DNA from: a bacterium
GTDB lineage: Bacteria > Actinomycetota > Acidimicrobiia > Spongiisociales > ZC4RG35
Direction of reading: 5' to 3'
NCBI GenBank assembly: GCA_024639335.1
Contig: JAHEIN010000004.1
Location: 1-49,699, forward strand
Length of the DNA stretch: 49,699 bases
Each line of letters opens with the position of its first letter. Within the stretch, counting starts at the first letter, position 1. Below, in pieces: positions 1-8,291 of the stretch. Under the pieces are notes generated by a model that made no database searches, was not told where the DNA came from, and saw only the letters and a program-made list of their open reading frames with translations. The position numbers and the translations under genes were made by a program.

Positions 1-667
1 GCTGGGTACGGACTCCTTCGGGGACGTTGGCGTCCGGAGCGACCGGGCGGGGGTTCACGATCGCAGCCCGGGCACCATTGCCACTCGACCCGCCGTTGGG
101 CGCCGGTGCAGGCGTTTCGGCCGGCTTCTCCTCGAGAGCAACGGCCGCCGGGGCCGGGGCCTCCGCCGCAGCGGCGGGGGCGGGGGGTGCGGCCCGCTCG
201 GGAGCGGGTGCTGGGGCTGGGGGGGCCGGCGTTTCGGTGGCAGCCGGGGCCGCGGGGGCCGGAGCGGCTTCGCCCGCCATCTCGGCGAGGACCGAGGCGA
301 CGGATACGCCGAGTGACTTGGCTTTGGCTTCGGCCGACCGTTTCACGAGAGATTCAGGAAGACCGCCGACCTCGGCCGCCTTCTTGAGGAGAGCATCGAC
401 GTCGACCTCCGCTGCGGGAGCCGAAGCCACGGGCTCGGGAGCAGCCGGAGCCGGAGCTGGTTCGTCATCGGCCGGCTCGGACGCCGGGGCTTCGGCGGGG
501 AGGGCACCGGGGTCCGGTACTTCCACCTCGGCAGCGGCTGCTGAGGGCGGCGGGGTGGGCGGCGCCTCGCCCTTCATCTCTGCGAGGACCTGCTCCACCG
601 GAAGGCCGAGCGCCTTGGCCTTCGCCTCGGCGGAGCGTCTGAGGAGATCTTCTGGGATGTCTGCCAT
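1..667 (-). CDS. 5' part (runs off window) of probable cytochrome b subunit IV-like (PetD/QcrC-type) protein with long N-terminal extension containing two copies of a 32-aa module and Pro/Ala linkers
   Basis: Absent from the ORF track because there is no stop in the window. Manual translation from ATG 667: MADIPEDLLRRSAEAKAKALGLPVEQVLAEMKGEA...LPESLVKRSAEAKAKSLGVSVASVLAEMAGEA...NVPEGVRTQ. SD-like GAGG upstream; starts 18 nt after the cytochrome b6 stop. The subunit IV identity is inferred from position only. Confidence 0.6.
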   Translation of the reverse strand, partial: MADIPEDLLRRSAEAKAKALGLPVEQVLAEMKGEAPPTPPPSAAAAEVEVPDPGALPAEAPASEPADDEPAPAPAAPEPVASAPAAEVDVDALLKKAAEVGGLPESLVKRSAEAKAKSLGVSVASVLAEMAGEAAPAPAAPAATETPAPPAPAPAPERAAPPAPAAAAEAPAPAAVALEEKPAETPAPAPNGGSSGNGARAAIVNPRPVAPDANVPEGVRTQ

Positions 668-685
668 GTCGGGAGTCCTCTCGAT

Positions 686-1456
686 CTACAGCGGGCCGGA
701 GATACCGCCGTCCTTGCGGACCCGCCAGAAGTGGACCGCCATGAACAGCACGATGATGAACGGTAGGAACAGCACATGGAGCACGTACCAGCGCAGGATC
801 GTGCCGGCGGTGACCTCGGCGCCCGCCAGCAACGCGAACTTCACCTGTGCACCGAACACCGGAACGAATCCGGCCATGTTGGTGCCGACGGTGACCGCCC
901 ACAGCGCGAGTTGGTCCCACGGCAGCAGGTAGCCGGTGAACGACAGCAGAAGGGTCAGCAGCAGGAGGATGACGCCGACCACCCAGTTGAACTCACGCGG
1001 AGCCTTGTAGGCGCCGTGATAGAAGACCCGGCTCATGTGGAGAAAGACCACCAGCACCATGAGATGTGCGCCCCATCGATGCATGTTGCGGACCAACGAA
1101 CCAAACGCCACAGACGTCGACAACGCCTGGACGTCGGTGTAGGCGTTCTCGACCGTCGGGGCGTAATAGAACATCAGGAAGATGCCGGTGATGGTGAGGA
1201 GGATGAACAGGAAGAAGCTGAGTCCCCCGAGGCAGAGCGTGTAGCTCAGCTTGACGCCGTGGCGCTTCACCTTCACGGGGTGGAGGTGATACAACACATT
1301 GTTCATGATGACGTACGACCGGTTCCTCGGGCTGTCGGAGTAGCCCTTCTTGAACGGCGATCCGGGGCGCAGCACCGACTCGACGAAGCTGCTCGAGGCG
1401 AGCTTGTCGGTCGCTTCGGACAGCCGATCCTTCAAACTGGTGTTGCCATTCGCCAC
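686..1456 (-). CDS. petB: Cytochrome b6-like N-terminal cytochrome b subunit of a Rieske/cytochrome b complex
   Basis: Heme b ligands in [18 protein letters not shown] and [19 protein letters not shown] (14 residues between the His, b6 type), TLCLGG heme ci Cys, [17 protein letters not shown]-terminal GISGPL. Confidence 0.92.
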
Positions 1457-1468
1457 TCGTAGATCCTC

Positions 1469-1918
1469 CTACCAACGCATTCCGTATGAGTAACCGTTCT
1501 TGAAATCCCGCTGACCGGTGTCGACATCCCAGGGGCGGGCGTTGAGGCCGAGCTCGGCCGCTTGGTCGGCGAGCGAGCCCTCGAACTTGCCGAGAGAGAT
1601 CACGCCGGTCGGACAGCGGTCGATGCACAGCGCGCACCTGGTGCACTCGTTCTCGTCGACGACGAAGAACCCATAGTTGGATTCGTCCTCGTTGGGGTTG
1701 TCCACGTTGACCGCCTCGGTGATGGCATCGACACTCAGGTAGTGGATGCACTTCCACGGGCAGATGTCCACGCATCCCTCGCAGAGGATGCACTCGGCTT
1801 GATCGATGTGGAGAAACTGCTTCGGTCGGAGCTTGTCCTTGAAGTAATCGCCCTCGACGAGGGCGAGCTGGTAGTCGTCGCGGAACGGCGGTGTCTCGTC
1901 GACGATCCCCTTCGGCAT
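1469..1918 (-). CDS. 2x[4Fe-4S] dicluster ferredoxin-like protein
   Basis: CILCEGCVDICP and CTRCALCIDRCP motifs; start overlaps the upstream stop. Confidence 0.92.
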   Translation of the reverse strand: MPKGIVDETPPFRDDYQLALVEGDYFKDKLRPKQFLHIDQAECILCEGCVDICPWKCIHYLSVDAITEAVNVDNPNEDESNYGFFVVDENECTRCALCIDRCPTGVISLGKFEGSLADQAAELGLNARPWDVDTGQRDFKNGYSYGMRW

Positions 1919-2562
1919 CAGCGGTCACCCTTGACGAGCGTGCGGCCGTAGGGCGAGGTGACCTCGTCTGGAGCAGCGGCAGACTCGGGGCGCCCGCCGT
2001 AGACGTCCGGGATCTTGTAGGCGAACAAGCCACCGAGAACCAGCATCGCGAGGTTGTAGCCCATCGAGATGGAGTCTTTGATCACGGCCCAGCTGATGCT
2101 GATGTCGTTGCCGAGAACGAGGAACGACGGGATCGGGTCGAGGCCCGGCACCAGTCGCTGGCTGCTCCAATCGAGATCGGTCTGTGAGAAGTTGAGCCAT
2201 TCCGAGGGGACGATTCCGAAGATGACGACGAGTTCGAGCCACGCGAGTGTGGCGGCGATCGACGCCACCGCCCAGGACATCTTGCGGCCGAGTACGAACA
2301 GGAACGCCGCTCCGACCAACATCAGCTGCGAAGCGCCGAAAGCGATCACGTAGCCGAGCGCCTTCCACCAGATCCCCCGTGGCATCCAGTTGAGGAAATC
2401 GACTTGGAAAGGAACGAACTCGCCGTCGACGAGCTCCTCGACCGGGAACTGGGCCCAGTGGACGATGACCACGGCGATGACCATCGCCACGGTGCCCACC
2501 GCCAGCATGGCACTGCCATAGGTGATCCGTTGGCTGGGGCTGAGTTCGCCGAGTCGATACAT
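1918..2562 (-). CDS. Uncharacterised membrane protein (about 4 TM), first gene of the cytochrome b operon
   Basis: Hydrophobic segments; SD GGAGA before ATG 2562; coupled to the ferredoxin gene. Confidence 0.75.
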   Translation of the reverse strand: MYRLGELSPSQRITYGSAMLAVGTVAMVIAVVIVHWAQFPVEELVDGEFVPFQVDFLNWMPRGIWWKALGYVIAFGASQLMLVGAAFLFVLGRKMSWAVASIAATLAWLELVVIFGIVPSEWLNFSQTDLDWSSQRLVPGLDPIPSFLVLGNDISISWAVIKDSISMGYNLAMLVLGGLFAYKIPDVYGGRPESAAAPDEVTSPYGRTLVKGDR

Positions 2563-2744
2563 CAGGTCTCCTGGGTCTTTTCCCTGGTCGGGGCGAGATT
2601 CTAGTCATCCGATTCGACCTGACGGCAAAGCATCGGGAAGCCGACGTCGCACAGGTGAGCGACCAACGTCGTGACGCGAGATGTGAGGACGAGCGCCGCG
2701 ATGGCCAAGCTAACCTCGCCGGTGCCGCCGACACAGAGGTGAGG
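2563..2744. promoter_or_regulatory. Divergent promoter region between the cytochrome b operon and the cbb3-like operon
   Basis: Minus-strand TAGAAT (2598-2603) and plus-strand TAACCT (2711-2716) -10-like hexamers; SD GAGGTGAGG before GTG 2745. Confidence 0.5.
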
Positions 2745-4184
2745 GTGACCACAACAGCGACTGAACAACGGACCGGGCGTCGGGTCGCCACGGAGAACGT
2801 GGCCACCGCTCACCTTCTCGTGTCTTCAGCGTTCCTCGCTCTCGGCGGCGTGTTGACCGTCCTGTCGATGGCATCGGTGTCGTTCATCTCCCTCAGCGGC
2901 CCGTTGTCGTACGGCCGGCTGCGACCGATGACGATGTTGGTGGTCATGCTCGGCTGGCTCGTGCCCGCCTTCGCCGGGGTGGGGTATTACCTGCTCCCCC
3001 GACTCACCGGAACGCCGCTCTTTCAACCTCGCCTCGCAGGGCTCGGGCTCATCGGGACCTCGGGGCTCACGGTCCTGGGCGTCTTGTGGCTGTTCTTCGG
3101 GCTGGGAGACGGAATCGAACCGTTCGGGCTGCCGTGGTATCTCGACATCCTGATCTTGGGCGTGGTCTCGATTCCCGCCGTCGTGACGTTCGGCACCATC
3201 CGCAACCGCTCGGAAGAGAGCGTTTTCGCCTCGCTGTGGTTCGTGATGGCAGCGGTGCTCTGGCTCCCCGGCCTGGCGCTCGTCTCTGCGCTTCCGAACC
3301 TCGCCGCGATCGGGCGCCAGCTACAAGAGGTGGTCTTCTCCACCGGCTTCGGGACGCTGTGGGTGACGGCCATGGGCTTCGGTATCGCCTACTACGTGGC
3401 GGTGAAGCAGACCGACAACCCGCTCGCCAACCGTCAGGTGGCAAAAGCCGGCTTCTGGTCGCTCGCATTCTCCGGTGCGTTCCTCGGACCGGTCCAGATC
3501 GCTTTCGGCCCGACGCCCGACTGGCTCGACTCGGTGTCGGCCGTCCTGTCGCTCGCCCTCCCGGTGGCGGCGATCGCAACGGCTGCCGCAGTCGCAACGA
3601 CCGTCGCCGACGATTGGAGTGACGCTTCGGAGCGCCCGGCTCTCCTGGCCGTCGGGTACGGGCTCGCCTTGGCGATCGTCGCCTCGGTGCTCTCGGTCTT
3701 CGGTGCGTTCTCCTCTGCAGCAGCCCTCGTGGGCTTGAGCGCCTTCTGGGATGGCATTCAGTTCCTCGTTCTCTTCGGCGTGGGCGGCACGTTCCTCTCG
3801 GCATTCGCCTACCAGGCGATCCCCCCGATGACCGGGCGGCAAATCGACGACACCGGCAACGCCGGCCGGCAGATCAGACTGGTCGCCTGGGGTTCGCTGG
3901 GCACCGCAGTGTTCCTCGTCCTCGCCGGGATCCTGTCCGGGTTCTCCTGGACCGGTGGGTCGTACACCGGCTCGTACACCGATGCCGGCGAAGGGTGGGC
4001 CGAAGCCATGGCACTCCCCGATGTGTTGATCGGCGTCGCCGTGCTCGGGGCACTGGTCACCTTCGTGGGCCAACTCCTGTTCGTGCGCAACGTGACCTCC
4101 GCCATCACGAGCGGGACGGCCGGCGCCCAGGAGGTGCTGGTCTACACCCCGGTCTCCGACGATGACGACGGAGGGGACTCATGA
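2745..4184 (+). CDS. cbb3-type oxidase subunit I (CcoN)-fold membrane protein lacking heme/CuB histidine ligands
   Basis: CcoN-like landmarks SYGRLRP, YYLLPRLT, RSEESVFASLWF, YYVAVKQTDNPL, GFWSL, PTPDWL and about 12 TM, but only one His in the whole protein. Start placed at GTG 2745 after the SD. Confidence 0.82.
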   Translation: MTTTATEQRTGRRVATENVATAHLLVSSAFLALGGVLTVLSMASVSFISLSGPLSYGRLRPMTMLVVMLGWLVPAFAGVGYYLLPRLTGTPLFQPRLAGLGLIGTSGLTVLGVLWLFFGLGDGIEPFGLPWYLDILILGVVSIPAVVTFGTIRNRSEESVFASLWFVMAAVLWLPGLALVSALPNLAAIGRQLQEVVFSTGFGTLWVTAMGFGIAYYVAVKQTDNPLANRQVAKAGFWSLAFSGAFLGPVQIAFGPTPDWLDSVSAVLSLALPVAAIATAAAVATTVADDWSDASERPALLAVGYGLALAIVASVLSVFGAFSSAAALVGLSAFWDGIQFLVLFGVGGTFLSAFAYQAIPPMTGRQIDDTGNAGRQIRLVAWGSLGTAVFLVLAGILSGFSWTGGSYTGSYTDAGEGWAEAMALPDVLIGVAVLGALVTFVGQLLFVRNVTSAITSGTAGAQEVLVYTPVSDDDDGGDS

Positions 4185-4927
4185 GTGAAGTCGCCGCCGC
4201 TGCGGCTGCAATGAACATCCCCGAAGAGCTGGTCGAGCGCTCGGCCGCCGCCCGTGCGACAGCGGCCGGGTCCACTACCGAGGAAGTGATCGCCGCCTGG
4301 GCGGGAGGAGCTCCGGCGCCGGCGGCGGCTCCGCCACCCCCAGAGGAGCCGGCTCCCTCGGAAGCGGACGCTCCGACCGAGCCATTGCCCCCGACAGAGC
4401 CGATCACAGCCCCCGCGACAGAACCGGTGGAGCAACCGGCGGCGACGGCAGCGCCGGTGTCCATTGCGGCACCAACGGAGCCCCCGGTGCTCCAGGGACG
4501 AACGGAGCATCCGTTCCTGATCGCCGCGGGAGCAGCCGGGCTGCTCATCGTGGCGCTGCTGGTCGGCTTTCTCGCACCTGCCCTCCCGCAAGAAGGAAAC
4601 GGTGTGTACTCATCTGCGGTTCCCTTGACCGAGGCAGCGATCGAGGGACGTGAGGTGTATCGCAGTGAGGGCTGTTCGTCGTGTCACACTCAGTTGGTCC
4701 GGCCAATCGTCGCCGATGTCGGTCTGGGACCGGTGACGATCTCCGACAGCAACCAGGTTCTCGGCGTCCGGAGGTACGGGCCCGACTTGGCTCACGTCGG
4801 GAGCAGGGTCGAGTCACAATCGTCGCTGTTGTCGGTACTGACGGGTTCGAGCGATCATCCTTCGTACGGGGGGCTGTCGGACACCGACCTCGAGAACCTC
4901 ACCGCCTACCTGTTTCAATCGAAATGA
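4181..4927 (+). CDS. CcoO-like membrane-anchored monoheme cytochrome c with N-terminal module and Pro/Ala linker
   Basis: EGREVYRSEGCSSCHTQLVRP and RRYGPDLAHVGSR match CcoO motifs; one TM; ATGA overlap with the upstream gene. Confidence 0.85.
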   Translation: MSEVAAAAAAMNIPEELVERSAAARATAAGSTTEEVIAAWAGGAPAPAAAPPPPEEPAPSEADAPTEPLPPTEPITAPATEPVEQPAATAAPVSIAAPTEPPVLQGRTEHPFLIAAGAAGLLIVALLVGFLAPALPQEGNGVYSSAVPLTEAAIEGREVYRSEGCSSCHTQLVRPIVADVGLGPVTISDSNQVLGVRRYGPDLAHVGSRVESQSSLLSVLTGSSDHPSYGGLSDTDLENLTAYLFQSK

Positions 4928-4946
4928 GAGACCGGGGAATCGAACG

Positions 4947-5915
4947 ATGAGCGATCAACTGTCATCCGCAGCGCAGGCCATGGGCATTCCGGAGGAACTG
5001 GTCCAGCGGTCTGCCGCAGCACGAGCTGCCGCCGCCGGGACCGACACCGAGACGGTCATCGGCGCCTGGGCCGGGGGTCAGTCCGCTCCCGCCGCAGCGG
5101 CCCCCGAGACACCTGAGCCGTCAAAGGCCGAAGAGCCTGCTTCCGAGCCTGCGAGAAGCGCACCGGAGGCCCCAACGGCCGTCGAACCCTCCCAGACACC
5201 GGCTCCCGCTCCGGCGCCGATCACCCCGCCACCGACGCCATCGGTGGTCTCCCCCGAGGAGGCACTCGACCACGACGTCGTCGTGTCTGTCCCGACTGCA
5301 GGTTTGAAGGAGCGCACCTCGACGACCATTCCTCAGTGGCTGGTGGCTGCACTGCTGATCGTCCCTGCCTTTGGCCTCCTCTATCTCGCAAGCAATGGCA
5401 CCGCCGACGCCACGTGCTCGGAGACCGGAGTCGTGTTGCGGGTCGACCGCGCAACCGGCGCGCTGGAGAACTGCGACGGTTCGGAGTTCTCCGGCCGGGG
5501 CGGAGCTTCCGGTGGCGGCCTCGAGTTCATCACCCTGGGCCAGGAGCTGTATTCCACGTGCTCCGGCTGTCATGGGGTGAACGGAGGCGGCGGCGTGGGG
5601 CCGGCGTTCGGCGGCGTCCTCAACACGTTCGGTGCCTGCTCGGATCACATCGAGTGGGTTCGACTCGGATCCTCCGGTTATCTCGCTGCCGGGCGAAACA
5701 CCTACGGTGATCTCGGGACCTCGGTCGGCGGTGGGATGCCAGGATTTCCCAATCTCTCGGATGAGGAGATCGCTGCGGTCATCGCCTTCGAGCGGATCCG
5801 CTTCGGGGGCGGGGCGGTCGACGCCGAACTCGCCAACTGTGGGCTGATCGAGGCCGCAGACGCAGAAGGGGAGGCCCCTGGGGACGAGGCATCCGATCCG
5901 ATGACAGAAGGCTGA
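4947..5915 (+). CDS. Membrane-anchored monoheme cytochrome c with N-terminal module
   Basis: CSGCH heme motif, GGGMPGF distal Met, one TM (WLVAALLIVPAFGLLYL), four additional Cys. Confidence 0.85.
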   Translation: MSDQLSSAAQAMGIPEELVQRSAAARAAAAGTDTETVIGAWAGGQSAPAAAAPETPEPSKAEEPASEPARSAPEAPTAVEPSQTPAPAPAPITPPPTPSVVSPEEALDHDVVVSVPTAGLKERTSTTIPQWLVAALLIVPAFGLLYLASNGTADATCSETGVVLRVDRATGALENCDGSEFSGRGGASGGGLEFITLGQELYSTCSGCHGVNGGGGVGPAFGGVLNTFGACSDHIEWVRLGSSGYLAAGRNTYGDLGTSVGGGMPGFPNLSDEEIAAVIAFERIRFGGGAVDAELANCGLIEAADAEGEAPGDEASDPMTEG

Positions 5916-5947
5916 TACCGGTCGTCGGACTGCGGCGAGCATCGCCC

Positions 5948-6193
5948 TCACCGTCTCAGCAGGCCCCGGACGATGTCGCGCGTCCCGAAGCTGCCTTCCG
6001 CGATGAGCTGACCCCCACTCGTCGTGAGCACCGGCACGCGCAGCCCGTACTCGACGACCAGCTCATCGTCGGTGTCGATGTCGACCACCTCGAGCTGACG
6101 CCCGAAGAGCTTCGCTACCCGACGAGCCCGAGGCAGAGCGGATTCACACAGGTGGCACGCGGGACGGGTGTAGAAAATCATCTCAGAAAACAT
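5948..6193 (-). CDS. Glutaredoxin-like protein (DUF836/NrdH-like)
   Basis: FYTRPACHLC, VDIDTDDELVVEYGLRVPVL. Confidence 0.85.
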   Translation of the reverse strand: MFSEMIFYTRPACHLCESALPRARRVAKLFGRQLEVVDIDTDDELVVEYGLRVPVLTTSGGQLIAEGSFGTRDIVRGLLRR

Positions 6194-6220
6194 TCAAGTG
6201 CATACCGCAAGGGTCCGATC

Positions 6221-7487: not shown

Positions 7488-8291
7488 ATGTCGCATGTGA
7501 GTTTTCTGTCGGACTTCGGCCTCACCGACGAATTCGTCGGAGTGGTCCACGGAGTCATCGCAAAACTGGCACCAGACACGACCGTCGTCGATGTCACGCA
7601 CGGCATCCCGAGAGGCGACGTTCGATCGGGCGCACTCGCGTTGGTGCGCGCCATTCAGTATCTGCCCGAAGGCGTGGTTCTGGCAGTCGTCGACCCCGGC
7701 GTTGGCACGAATCGCCGCGCGATCGCGGCCCAGACCGAGTCGAGAATGCTGTTCGTCGGTCCCGACAATGGGCTGCTGGGGCCGGCGGTTGCCACGATGG
7801 GTGGCGCCACGAAGATCGTCGAGTTGACCAACCCGGCGGCGCAGATCCCGAGCGTCGGTGCCACCTTCGCGGGCCGTGACATCTTCGGGCCGGCTGCTGC
7901 GCTGTTGGCGTCTGGTGAAGCGTCGGTCGATGATCTCGGGCCCGAGGTCGCACCCGACTCGGTGACTCCCCTCTTGATCCCCCTGCCTGAGATCGAACCG
8001 GGGCGGGTCGTTGGCGAGGCCTGGTGGGTCGACACCTTCGGCAACGTTCAATCCAACATCGGACCCGAAGACCTCGCGGTGGCCGGGATCACGCGAGCGG
8101 TCACGGTCACGGTGCGGGTCGGAGCCACCGAGCACGAGGTGCCATGGGTGGATGCATACGGTGACGTGGACGAGGGTGAACCGCTGTTGTACGTGGATTC
8201 GTCCGGCCTGATGGCCGTGGCCGTTCGGGCAGGCTCGGCGACGTCGTATTTCAATCTGGCAGCTGGGACGGCACTGACTCTGGTGGGTTGA
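7488..8291 (+). CDS. SAM hydroxide adenosyltransferase / DUF62 (chlorinase/fluorinase superfamily)
   Basis: FLSDFGLTDEFVG, DVTHGI, VVDPGVGTNRR, GPDNG, TFAGRDIFGP, DTFGN. Confidence 0.9.
   Translation: MSHVSFLSDFGLTDEFVGVVHGVIAKLAPDTTVVDVTHGIPRGDVRSGALALVRAIQYLPEGVVLAVVDPGVGTNRRAIAAQTESRMLFVGPDNGLLGPAVATMGGATKIVELTNPAAQIPSVGATFAGRDIFGPAAALLASGEASVDDLGPEVAPDSVTPLLIPLPEIEPGRVVGEAWWVDTFGNVQSNIGPEDLAVAGITRAVTVTVRVGATEHEVPWVDAYGDVDEGEPLLYVDSSGLMAVAVRAGSATSYFNLAAGTALTLVG

Follow-up and report, generated by a model that had tools for sequence, protein, structure and literature searches.

The window analyzed here, a stretch of 49,699 nucleotides (contig JAHEIN010000004.1 of assembly GCA_024639335.1, C285 in our numbering), comes from a bacterium of the class Acidimicrobiia, and at its left end two divergent operons encode proteins of the respiratory chain. 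The right-hand operon begins with a homolog of the cbb3 oxidase subunit CcoN that lacks all six histidine ligands of heme and CuB as well as the cross-linked tyrosine. The gene is nonetheless conserved. It is under purifying selection, and in each of 94 loci it is paired divergently with the operon of a cytochrome b6-type complex III, which we term b6c. We refer to the CcoN homolog as the relic, and by its sequence it is probably a scaffold for c-type cytochromes.

The genome comprises 3.2 Mb in 296 contigs and is 91.6% complete. All of its named relatives in database and genome searches are metagenome-assembled genomes (MAGs) of Acidimicrobiia, and DNA of the organism itself was found in nine sequencing runs from four studies, the sources being sediment and soil metagenomes; no RNA run was listed for it. 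For the survey of loci one genome per species was scanned, a relative was found in 155 genomes, and the best 80 loci of these were kept; 14 loci fetched additionally bring the set to 94, all of them located through the CcoN homolog. Synteny was scored using the proteins of the window as tblastn queries, with denominators counting the loci that have enough flanking sequence. A class-wide sample comprised 301 Acidimicrobiia genomes. The survey tallies include two unpublished genomes (G254 and G212).

A CcoN homolog without cofactor ligands

The CcoN homolog is a protein of 479 aa encoded at 2745..4184 on the forward strand. It scores 118.8 bits against PF00115 (COX1; cut-off 34.8) and 96 bits against TIGR00780, far under the equivalog cut-off of 583, and its pairwise alignment with the solved CcoN chain 3mk7_A has E = 6.4e-16. 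A database search returned 96 clusters, 91 of them at E ≤ 1.9e-57 followed, after a gap, by five at E ≥ 6e-13. A profile of the 91 clusters matches solved CcoN over profile positions 12-457 of 474 (6xkw_n, E = 2.1e-43; 3mk7_A, E = 2.2e-42). By these comparisons the protein has the 12-helix fold of COX1 and sequence homology to CcoN.

The ligand positions were located from what we take to be the residue numbering of the six histidines and the tyrosine in P. stutzeri CcoN. In both the pairwise and the profile alignment the protein of the window shows T, F, V, Q, L and L at the six positions and G instead of the cross-linked tyrosine; it has one histidine in its whole length. Among the 91 clusters the six columns contain 0, 0, 0, 1, 0 and 0 histidines. 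The ligand columns of the low-spin heme b are Ala/Thr and Leu/Val/Ile, with no histidine in the 91 clusters or in the 94 loci. The column for the high-spin heme b3 is Leu, Ala or Gly, again with no histidine in the clusters, and those for CuB are Phe, Ala/Val/Leu and Gln, with the single histidine lying in one of these. The tyrosine column is Ala, Gly or Ser. None of the six histidines is present in 92 of the 94 loci, and one is present in the remaining 2. The initial annotation had called this protein ligand-less, and the pairwise, profile and 94-locus alignments all bear it out. The CcoN homolog is thus predicted to be incapable of binding the oxidase cofactors through the canonical ligands. 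Since all of the heme and copper ligands have been lost, it cannot, as read from its sequence, be an oxidase, nor can it reduce O2 or NO.

Comparison with four relatives gave a ratio of nonsynonymous to synonymous substitution rates (dN/dS) of 0.09-0.16 for the CcoN homolog, comparable with that of the Rieske protein (0.05-0.11; the corresponding values for the diheme cytochrome c are 0.08-0.24), and almost every genome has an uninterrupted reading frame of about 470 codons. From these dN/dS values the CcoN homolog is under purifying selection; it is functional and is not decaying. The catalytically dead CcoN that had been proposed is therefore dead by its ligand columns, yet conserved.

The relic is always found beside the b6c operon

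Divergent pairing of the CcoN homolog with b6c was found in 94/94 loci, down to an identity of 24%; this is the synteny survey that the initial annotation had proposed as a check on its suggestion of a supercomplex. Upstream and on the opposite strand lie genes for a membrane protein with four transmembrane (TM) helices (4-TM protein; 76/76 loci), a ferredoxin-like protein (71/71), cytochrome b6 (66/66) and subunit IV (64/64), followed further out by the Rieske protein (61/61), a diheme cytochrome c (58/58) and a small TM protein (55/55). Downstream and on the same strand are a CcoO-like protein (66/66) and a cytochrome c (61/61). The divergent layout is kept in ten loci from distant families (CcoN identity 27-35%), in nine of which the CcoN has none of the six histidines and in one of which (L089) it has a single histidine. 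It is also kept in four loci of a family with genomes of about 1 Mb (CcoN identity 24-26%). In one genome of the latter family (G089) the relic is interrupted by one TGA and one TAA codon.

The co-occurrence of the two operons holds in one direction. The relic is always beside b6c, but the b6c/ferredoxin operon is class-wide and is also found without the relic. Cytochrome b6 was detected in 288 of the 301 class genomes at E ≤ 1e-20 and, by our own count from the table, in 271 of 301 at E ≤ 1e-74 (76-91% identity). The relic profile detects at least 69/301 genomes at E ≤ 1e-30. This is a minimum, given that G005 and G141, which provide two of the four relic-bearing loci of the 1-Mb-genome family, scored below this cut. 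Since the b6c operon is class-wide and is present also without the relic, the b6c complex should work without it, and the relic would be an accessory, non-obligate partner.

The left operon encodes an APWY-clade complex III

The gene order and coordinates of both divergent operons, taken from the list of open reading frames (ORFs), are as first annotated. The operons are separated by an intergenic region of 182 bp (2563..2744), provided that the CcoN homolog starts at GTG 2745. This start is preceded by GAGGTGAGG and is shared by a database copy (P0001); the longest ORF would begin at 2655 instead. A scan of the 182-bp spacer for the sigma-70 consensus, which is uninformative for a high-GC actinobacterium, found no promoter-like site.

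Cytochrome b6 (256 aa; 686..1456, reverse strand) matches PF00033 with 160.5 bits. It has the four heme histidines as H-x13-H and H-x14-H, with spacings of 13 and 14 residues, and a heme-ci motif TLCLGG that is found in 90/90 full-length orthologs. Subunit IV, corresponding to the C-terminal half of cytochrome b, is cut by the edge of the window; its N-terminal part (2..667, reverse strand) contains two copies of a three-helix module with Ala/Pro-rich linkers between. Its TM part, with the Qo motif APWY, is encoded on contig C40 (12112-13050 of locus L003), and APWY is present in 83/85 subunit IV orthologs. The 482 bases at window positions 1-482 overlap the end of C40 (12621-13102 of L003) and are 98% identical to it, which makes C40 very probably the contig to the left of the window. 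The break between the contigs falls within the gene for subunit IV, where it encodes Ala/Pro-rich linkers; the two ends differ slightly in the linker, which has the look of strain heterogeneity or of an assembly break caused by a repeat. A scan of positions 1-6200 for repeats found just short GC-rich matches of a chance-like kind. Relatives with long contigs have the same unbroken order, matching the inferred join; in L004, for instance, a 434-kb contig runs from nuoD through the right-hand operon.

On C40 the left operon continues through the TM part of subunit IV, the Rieske protein, the diheme cytochrome c, a membrane protein of 118 aa and nuoA-D. The sequence to the left of the window had been singled out for inspection in the expectation of a Rieske protein, and that protein is there (CVHLGC...CPCH; match to PF00355) together with the diheme cytochrome c. 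The latter has 589 aa with heme motifs CGDCH at 106 and CARCH at 485 (9480-11249 of L003, reverse strand).

Two further genes of the operon are less familiar. The 4-TM protein (214 aa; 1918..2562, reverse strand) has four long helices. It has no Pfam or NCBIfam family, its structural model found no match in the PDB at E ≤ 0.001 (best 0.48), and its matches in the ESM Atlas are only unnamed Actinomycetota clusters. Its stop codon overlaps by one base the start of the gene for the ferredoxin-like protein (149 aa; 1469..1918, reverse strand), which has two C..C..C...CP motifs for 2x[4Fe-4S] and a conserved tail at its C-terminus, and which lacks both a signal peptide and TM segments. The ferredoxin-like gene is the most conserved of the cluster (dN/dS 0.008-0.041). 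Homologs were found in 2445 clusters at E ≤ 1e-10 with names that are generic or 'NuoI', and some are called 'NADH-quinone oxidoreductase subunit I' by their sources. That name is probably wrong, given the fixed place of the gene in the b6c operon.

The left operon thus has all the features of a split b6-type Rieske/cytochrome b complex: the division into b6 and subunit IV, four heme histidines, CxGG, APWY, the Rieske motifs and a c-type subunit. This cytochrome b6 is also the one cytochrome b found in the genome. Completed on C40, the left operon is assigned by these motifs as the only complex III of the organism, a menaquinol:cytochrome c reductase of the APWY clade with split b6 and subunit IV, and this complex III is predicted to carry two class-wide extra subunits, namely the 4-TM protein and a cytoplasmic 2x[4Fe-4S] protein.

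Some features of this region stand apart. In the lineage of the window the diheme cytochrome c has a very acidic insert of ~300 aa with DxDGDG-type repeats between its heme domains, which matches the bacterial TSP3 repeat weakly (E = 0.0025, below the cut-off). In other families tblastn covers just the two heme-domain ends of the query, and the insert seems to be absent there. The genes nuoA, B, C and D (6090-9034 of L003, reverse strand) follow directly after the small TM gene on the strand of the b6c operon, while in relatives nuoA lies 0.5-4 kb beyond that gene, so that complex I and complex III genes form one long neighborhood.

The CcoO-like protein, the third cytochrome and gene fusions

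The second gene of the right operon encodes a CcoO-like monoheme cytochrome c (4181..4927, forward strand; CSSCH) that scores 41.6 bits against FixO, and its start overlaps the stop codon of the CcoN homolog (ATGA). The protein consists of an N-terminal copy of the module (4181-4315), an Ala/Pro linker, one TM segment and a heme domain. CxxCH is present in 85/85 CcoO-like domains. In the column of the sixth ligand, Met in CcoO, the residue is strictly His (76) or Met (9) of the 85, and it is His in the window protein, whose heme is most likely His/His ligated. The third gene encodes a membrane-anchored class I cytochrome c (4947..5915, forward strand; CSGCH and an MP motif) of similar construction, with a module (4947-5084), a Pro-rich linker, one TM segment and a heme domain. 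It has a weak cbb3-related match (E = 0.0033).

Fusions occur in the more distant families. In eight of ten distant-family CcoN homologs there is a CxxCH near the C-terminus of a protein of 640-775 aa, and Pfam confirmed a fusion of COX1 with FixO in both of the proteins scanned (L088 and L090). These fused CcoN-CcoO forms have the Met-type sixth ligand. The overlap of stop and start codons, the FixO score and the distant COX1-FixO fusions together point to a CcoN-CcoO type of partnership with a monoheme cytochrome c. In a further locus (L092, 8093-10237, reverse strand) the relic continues through additional TM segments into a fused cupredoxin domain (Cupredoxin_1, 36 bits; cut-off 27) that ends in a C..H..M motif, and the genes for the CcoO-like protein and cytochrome c are ~6 kb from the fused relic. 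A search for fused relics of greater length (952-2715 aa) gave no match at E ≤ 1e-20, which is weak evidence of their absence. Because the relic has been fused recurrently to a carrier, either heme c or cupredoxin, the fusions argue that it may serve in the membrane as the chassis of an electron carrier in the periplasm.

A three-helix module is shared by the two operons

The N-terminal module is present in proteins of both operons. In subunit IV copy 1 (560..667, reverse strand; iE 4.9e-19) is a short form lacking the first helix and copy 2 (263..400, reverse strand, coordinates derived from ORF positions; iE 9.7e-22) is the full three-helix form. We built a hidden Markov model (HMM) from the four copies in the window and searched all six-frame ORFs of the genome. 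It matched subunit IV twice, the CcoO-like protein, the cytochrome c, the duplicate of subunit IV at the end of C40, and one further protein, with E from 2e-13 to 1e-24; the next best match has E = 0.18. The shared N-terminal module that had been noted as linking the two operons is therefore upheld genome-wide.

The further protein is a polytopic membrane protein of 442 aa (E = 1.9e-13), of no known family, whose gene lies 3.5 kb from ctaD. Among 37 genomes of the family of the window the polytopic module protein is present in 35, CtaD in 32 and both in 31. Of these 31, 27 have the two genes on a single contig and 26 (one of them, G319, unpublished) have them no more than 6 kb apart, always on opposite strands. 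A 521-aa ORF between the polytopic module protein and the caa3 operon in one locus (L087, 6427-7992, forward strand) appears regulator-like by eye alone.

The module occurs 260 times in 245 ORFs of the fetched loci, which are cytochromes c, subunit IV or truncated frames, and a search of 1.84 billion cluster representatives gave 456 matches at E ≤ 0.001. There are 1-7 copies per protein, in tandem. Wherever a complete protein could be judged the module is N-terminal to the TM segments, in single-TM cytochromes c, in subunit IV and in proteins with 5-8 TM segments. In proteins whose heme domains must be outside, the module comes ahead of the first TM segment, and from this topology we infer that it is cytoplasmic. 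Examples of multiple copies are a cytochrome c with four tandem modules (L093, 6617-8383, reverse strand) and a 618-aa database protein with seven (P0097).

Searching Pfam with the module at E ≤ 10 gave nothing usable (LysM_RLK, 0.19), and it corresponds to no Pfam family. An AlphaFold2 (AF2) model has three helices with pLDDT 91.6, and it has no match in the PDB at E ≤ 0.001 (best 2.3, designed helical repeats). In the 1-Mb-genome family (L101, L102, L103 and L109) the modules of two adjacent cytochromes are identical within the genome in three of four loci and differ by one residue in L103, while the module sequences differ between genomes. The identity within a genome suggests gene conversion or a matched partner. 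Prediction of a four-chain complex of the ferredoxin-like protein, the 4-TM protein, subunit IV 1-145 and the module of the cytochrome c gave 0.00 in two runs; the job is unlike those on which the tool was calibrated, and the score speaks neither for nor against binding.

The terminal oxidase and the remaining neighbors

Besides the relic there is one true COX1 in the genome (515 bits, contig C223). It lies in an operon that resembles ctaC-ctaD-ctaE-ctaF-ctaG, the names being read from the translations, in which CtaC ends in a cytochrome c domain (CVGCH). Because of this fused domain the C223 oxidase is classed, by sequence, as caa3-type, and it would be the only terminal oxidase found; cytochrome bd was not found in the genome at 91.6% completeness. 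Electrons from b6c must reach caa3 by way of c-type hemes, for which the diheme cytochrome c, the membrane-anchored cytochrome c and the CcoO-like heme are candidates.

Downstream of the right operon lie a glutaredoxin-like gene (PF05768; 5948-6193, reverse strand), a Clp1-type P-loop gene (PF16575; 6520-7401, reverse strand) and a 267-aa ORF (7488-8291, forward strand). These neighbors are conserved in most related loci, and their order and strand vary between families.

A role for the relic and its alternatives

The relic might be an inert 12-helix chassis in the membrane that keeps one-electron carriers in place at the membrane's outer face: the heme c of the CcoO-like protein, in one lineage a cupredoxin, and the third cytochrome c perhaps as well. 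With the CcoO-like protein and possibly the third cytochrome it would then form a membrane module containing only heme c, accessory to b6c. Such a module could lie in the path between the diheme cytochrome c of b6c and the caa3 oxidase, docking to either or both, and its function could be that of a relay, of a docking adaptor, or of the two combined. The three-helix domain in the cytoplasm would be a protein-binding tether that gathers the components or brings them to a common partner. We infer that the products of the two operons may associate physically as a supercomplex. The most economical history would be a former pairing of b6c with a cbb3 oxidase whose oxidase chemistry was lost; no ligand-bearing intermediate between cbb3 CcoN and the relic was found in the surveyed loci. 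We regard the role as relay or adaptor as evenly balanced between right and wrong. A more far-reaching version is rather unlikely. Here complexes III and IV and a pseudo-complex IV between them would form a megacomplex, the former cbb3 being kept as a heme c/copper bridge after caa3 took over, with the three-helix tether holding the parts on the cytoplasmic side. More boldly still, the 2x[4Fe-4S] subunit beside heme ci might couple the low-potential chain to a cytoplasmic redox partner.

Several observations weigh against this role. In 232/301 genomes the relic profile had no match at E ≤ 1e-30, although diverged forms can miss this cut, and eight b6c/ferredoxin loci from six other families have no CcoN homolog within about 9 kb. 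Four of these eight encode a weak homolog of the third cytochrome c divergently from b6c. Since this homolog adjoins b6c where the relic is missing, the third cytochrome may belong to b6c and not to the relic. Replacement of methionine by histidine as sixth ligand usually lowers the potential of a heme, which suggests that the His-type CcoO-like protein is less well suited to a simple relay toward an oxidase of high potential.

This last point suits better a role in sensing or storage, and the relic complex could be a structural, assembly or regulatory partner, either stabilizing b6c or sensing redox state, with no relay and with a heme c that is vestigial or sensory. We consider this unlikely. 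The layout of a cytoplasmic helical domain, TM segment and periplasmic domain does resemble that of one-component membrane sensors, b6c functions without the relic in many families, and one multi-module subunit IV (P0102) gave weak whole-protein matches to helix-turn-helix (HTH) families, led by Xre-like-HTH (7e-10), in which none of the individual stretches passed. Yet by our own reading the module has more acidic than basic residues and stands in tandem on a core b6c subunit, and a DNA-binding HTH was rejected for it on these grounds. Moreover the complete retention of CxxCH and the strict choice of His or Met as sixth ligand in the CcoO-like domains speak against this reading, and the cupredoxin that replaces the heme domain in one lineage points to electron carriage as the conserved role. 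Alternatively the right operon could be another outlet from b6c, to an acceptor other than caa3 that is extracellular, anaerobic or an unknown periplasmic one, which the initial annotation had offered as its second possibility. Low-potential His/His heme c is typical of extracellular and anaerobic chains, the DNA of the organism comes from sediment and soil, and cytochrome b6 passes the NCBIfam cut-off for ExtP (305.7 versus 290 bits), a protein of a Geobacter-type selenite/tellurite operon. Subunit IV, by contrast, has ExtQ as its best NCBIfam match but fails the cut-off for it (57.3 versus 150 bits), and the conserved neighborhood has glutaredoxin-like, Clp1-type and nuo genes without any multiheme cytochrome, porin or reductase gene. 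The module furthermore ties to the neighbor of the caa3 operon, and an alternative outlet is in our view quite improbable.

Two further explanations concern the relic itself. It is very unlikely that the CcoN homolog is still an enzyme or binds cofactors through unconventional ligands. One histidine close to where the first helix begins is shared by 79/91 clusters, and the motif SYGRLRP, which in true CcoN leads straight into a heme b ligand histidine, is retained. However, six of ten distant homologs have Y, C, L, F or V instead of that first-helix histidine, the ligand positions hold Ala, Phe, Leu or Gln, and the family has no Met, Lys, Cys or further His in invariant or nearly invariant columns. 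That the gene is a decaying pseudogene, or adjacent to b6c by chance, is barely credible, and we reject it for the family of the window. The copy in G089 does have internal stops, but the dN/dS values, the long open frame and the adjacency in every locus are all contrary to it.

Relation to known systems

The relic shares with CcoN of the cbb3 oxidase CcoN-CcoO-CcoP (3mk7_A, 6xkw_n) its full-length homology over 12 helices, and the right operon resembles that system in the adjoining CcoO-type monoheme c with overlapping stop and start codons and in having, downstream, another cytochrome c gene where ccoP would stand. It differs in the loss of the six histidines and the tyrosine, in the histidine that takes the place of methionine in most CcoO-like proteins, in a third gene that encodes a monoheme class I cytochrome c, and in the added cytoplasmic module; its sequence bears no sign of O2 binding. 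A survey of the heme-copper oxygen reductase superfamily describes, in its available text, the active-site histidines as 'completely conserved' in all families but one, in which a single histidine is replaced (10.1101/2021.10.15.464467). The qNOR, gNOR and other NOR families treated there are likewise divergent relatives of the oxygen reductases in which the tyrosine cofactor is lost or a ligand changed, whereas the relic family has replaced all ligands including those of the low-spin heme.

The b6-type complex had been put forward as undescribed, which is too strong. A split APWY-type cytochrome b with CxGG is reported, in the portion of that paper available to us, from deep-branching Actinobacteria that include an Acidimicrobidae isolate (Kao and Hunte 2014, PMC4122944), and its authors state there that no member of the APWY clade has been characterized. 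The complex described here has the same split b6 and subunit IV, the APWY Qo motif and the CxGG heme-ci motif. The usual motif is given in that text as WCMGG where ours is TLCLGG, and the same portion names no ferredoxin-like or 4-TM subunit, CcoN relic or module. As to the features of the actinobacterial bcc-aa3 supercomplex, a diheme c is present, and the cytochrome b is split, unlike QcrB, and scores 109 bits against bc1_QcrB_actin (cut-off 500). An identity of b6 and subunit IV with ExtP and ExtQ (NCBIfam cytb_ExtP and memb_ExtQ) was rejected, the ExtQ cut-off being failed and the name ExtP being an over-call, and none of the 12 proteins scanned against NCBIfam matched another Ext family.

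As far as the available parts of the reports go, the bc1-cbb3 supercomplex of Rhodobacter capsulatus (CIII2CIV, PMC7876108) and the actinobacterial bcc-aa3 supercomplex (PMC8361435, PMC5040959) pair complex III with a C- or A-family oxidase core, and have a diheme c subunit and membrane-anchored c connectors; they are the model for what the pairing of genes suggests here. In those both partners are active and the association is seen by structure, whereas here the C-family partner is dead and the association is deduced. No description of the ligand-less CcoN family, its pairing with b6c or the module was found in open-access papers or bioRxiv, supplements excluded. Nothing was found in the same sources on the class-wide ferredoxin-like and 4-TM subunits, which supplementary tables might list.

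Implications

The relic would be, if the reading is correct, the first family of heme-copper oxidases found to have lost all of its cofactor ligands and yet to be conserved. It would be a clean case of a respiratory pseudo-enzyme, offering a direct route to asking what the non-catalytic roles of an oxidase core are. There is also a practical consequence for annotation. Relic proteins are named 'cbb3-type cytochrome c oxidase subunit I' by their sources, and MAG studies list cbb3 oxidases by homology alone (PMC8357290, going by its available text; those MAGs may or may not carry the relic). It would be wrong to infer high-affinity, microaerobic respiration in Acidimicrobiia from this gene. Together with its ferredoxin-like subunit, b6c is the uncharacterized class-wide complex III of a class that is abundant in sediment, soil and the sea. 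The three-helix module, finally, is a small novel domain marking membrane proteins of respiration, and it makes the tethering of bacterial supercomplexes testable.

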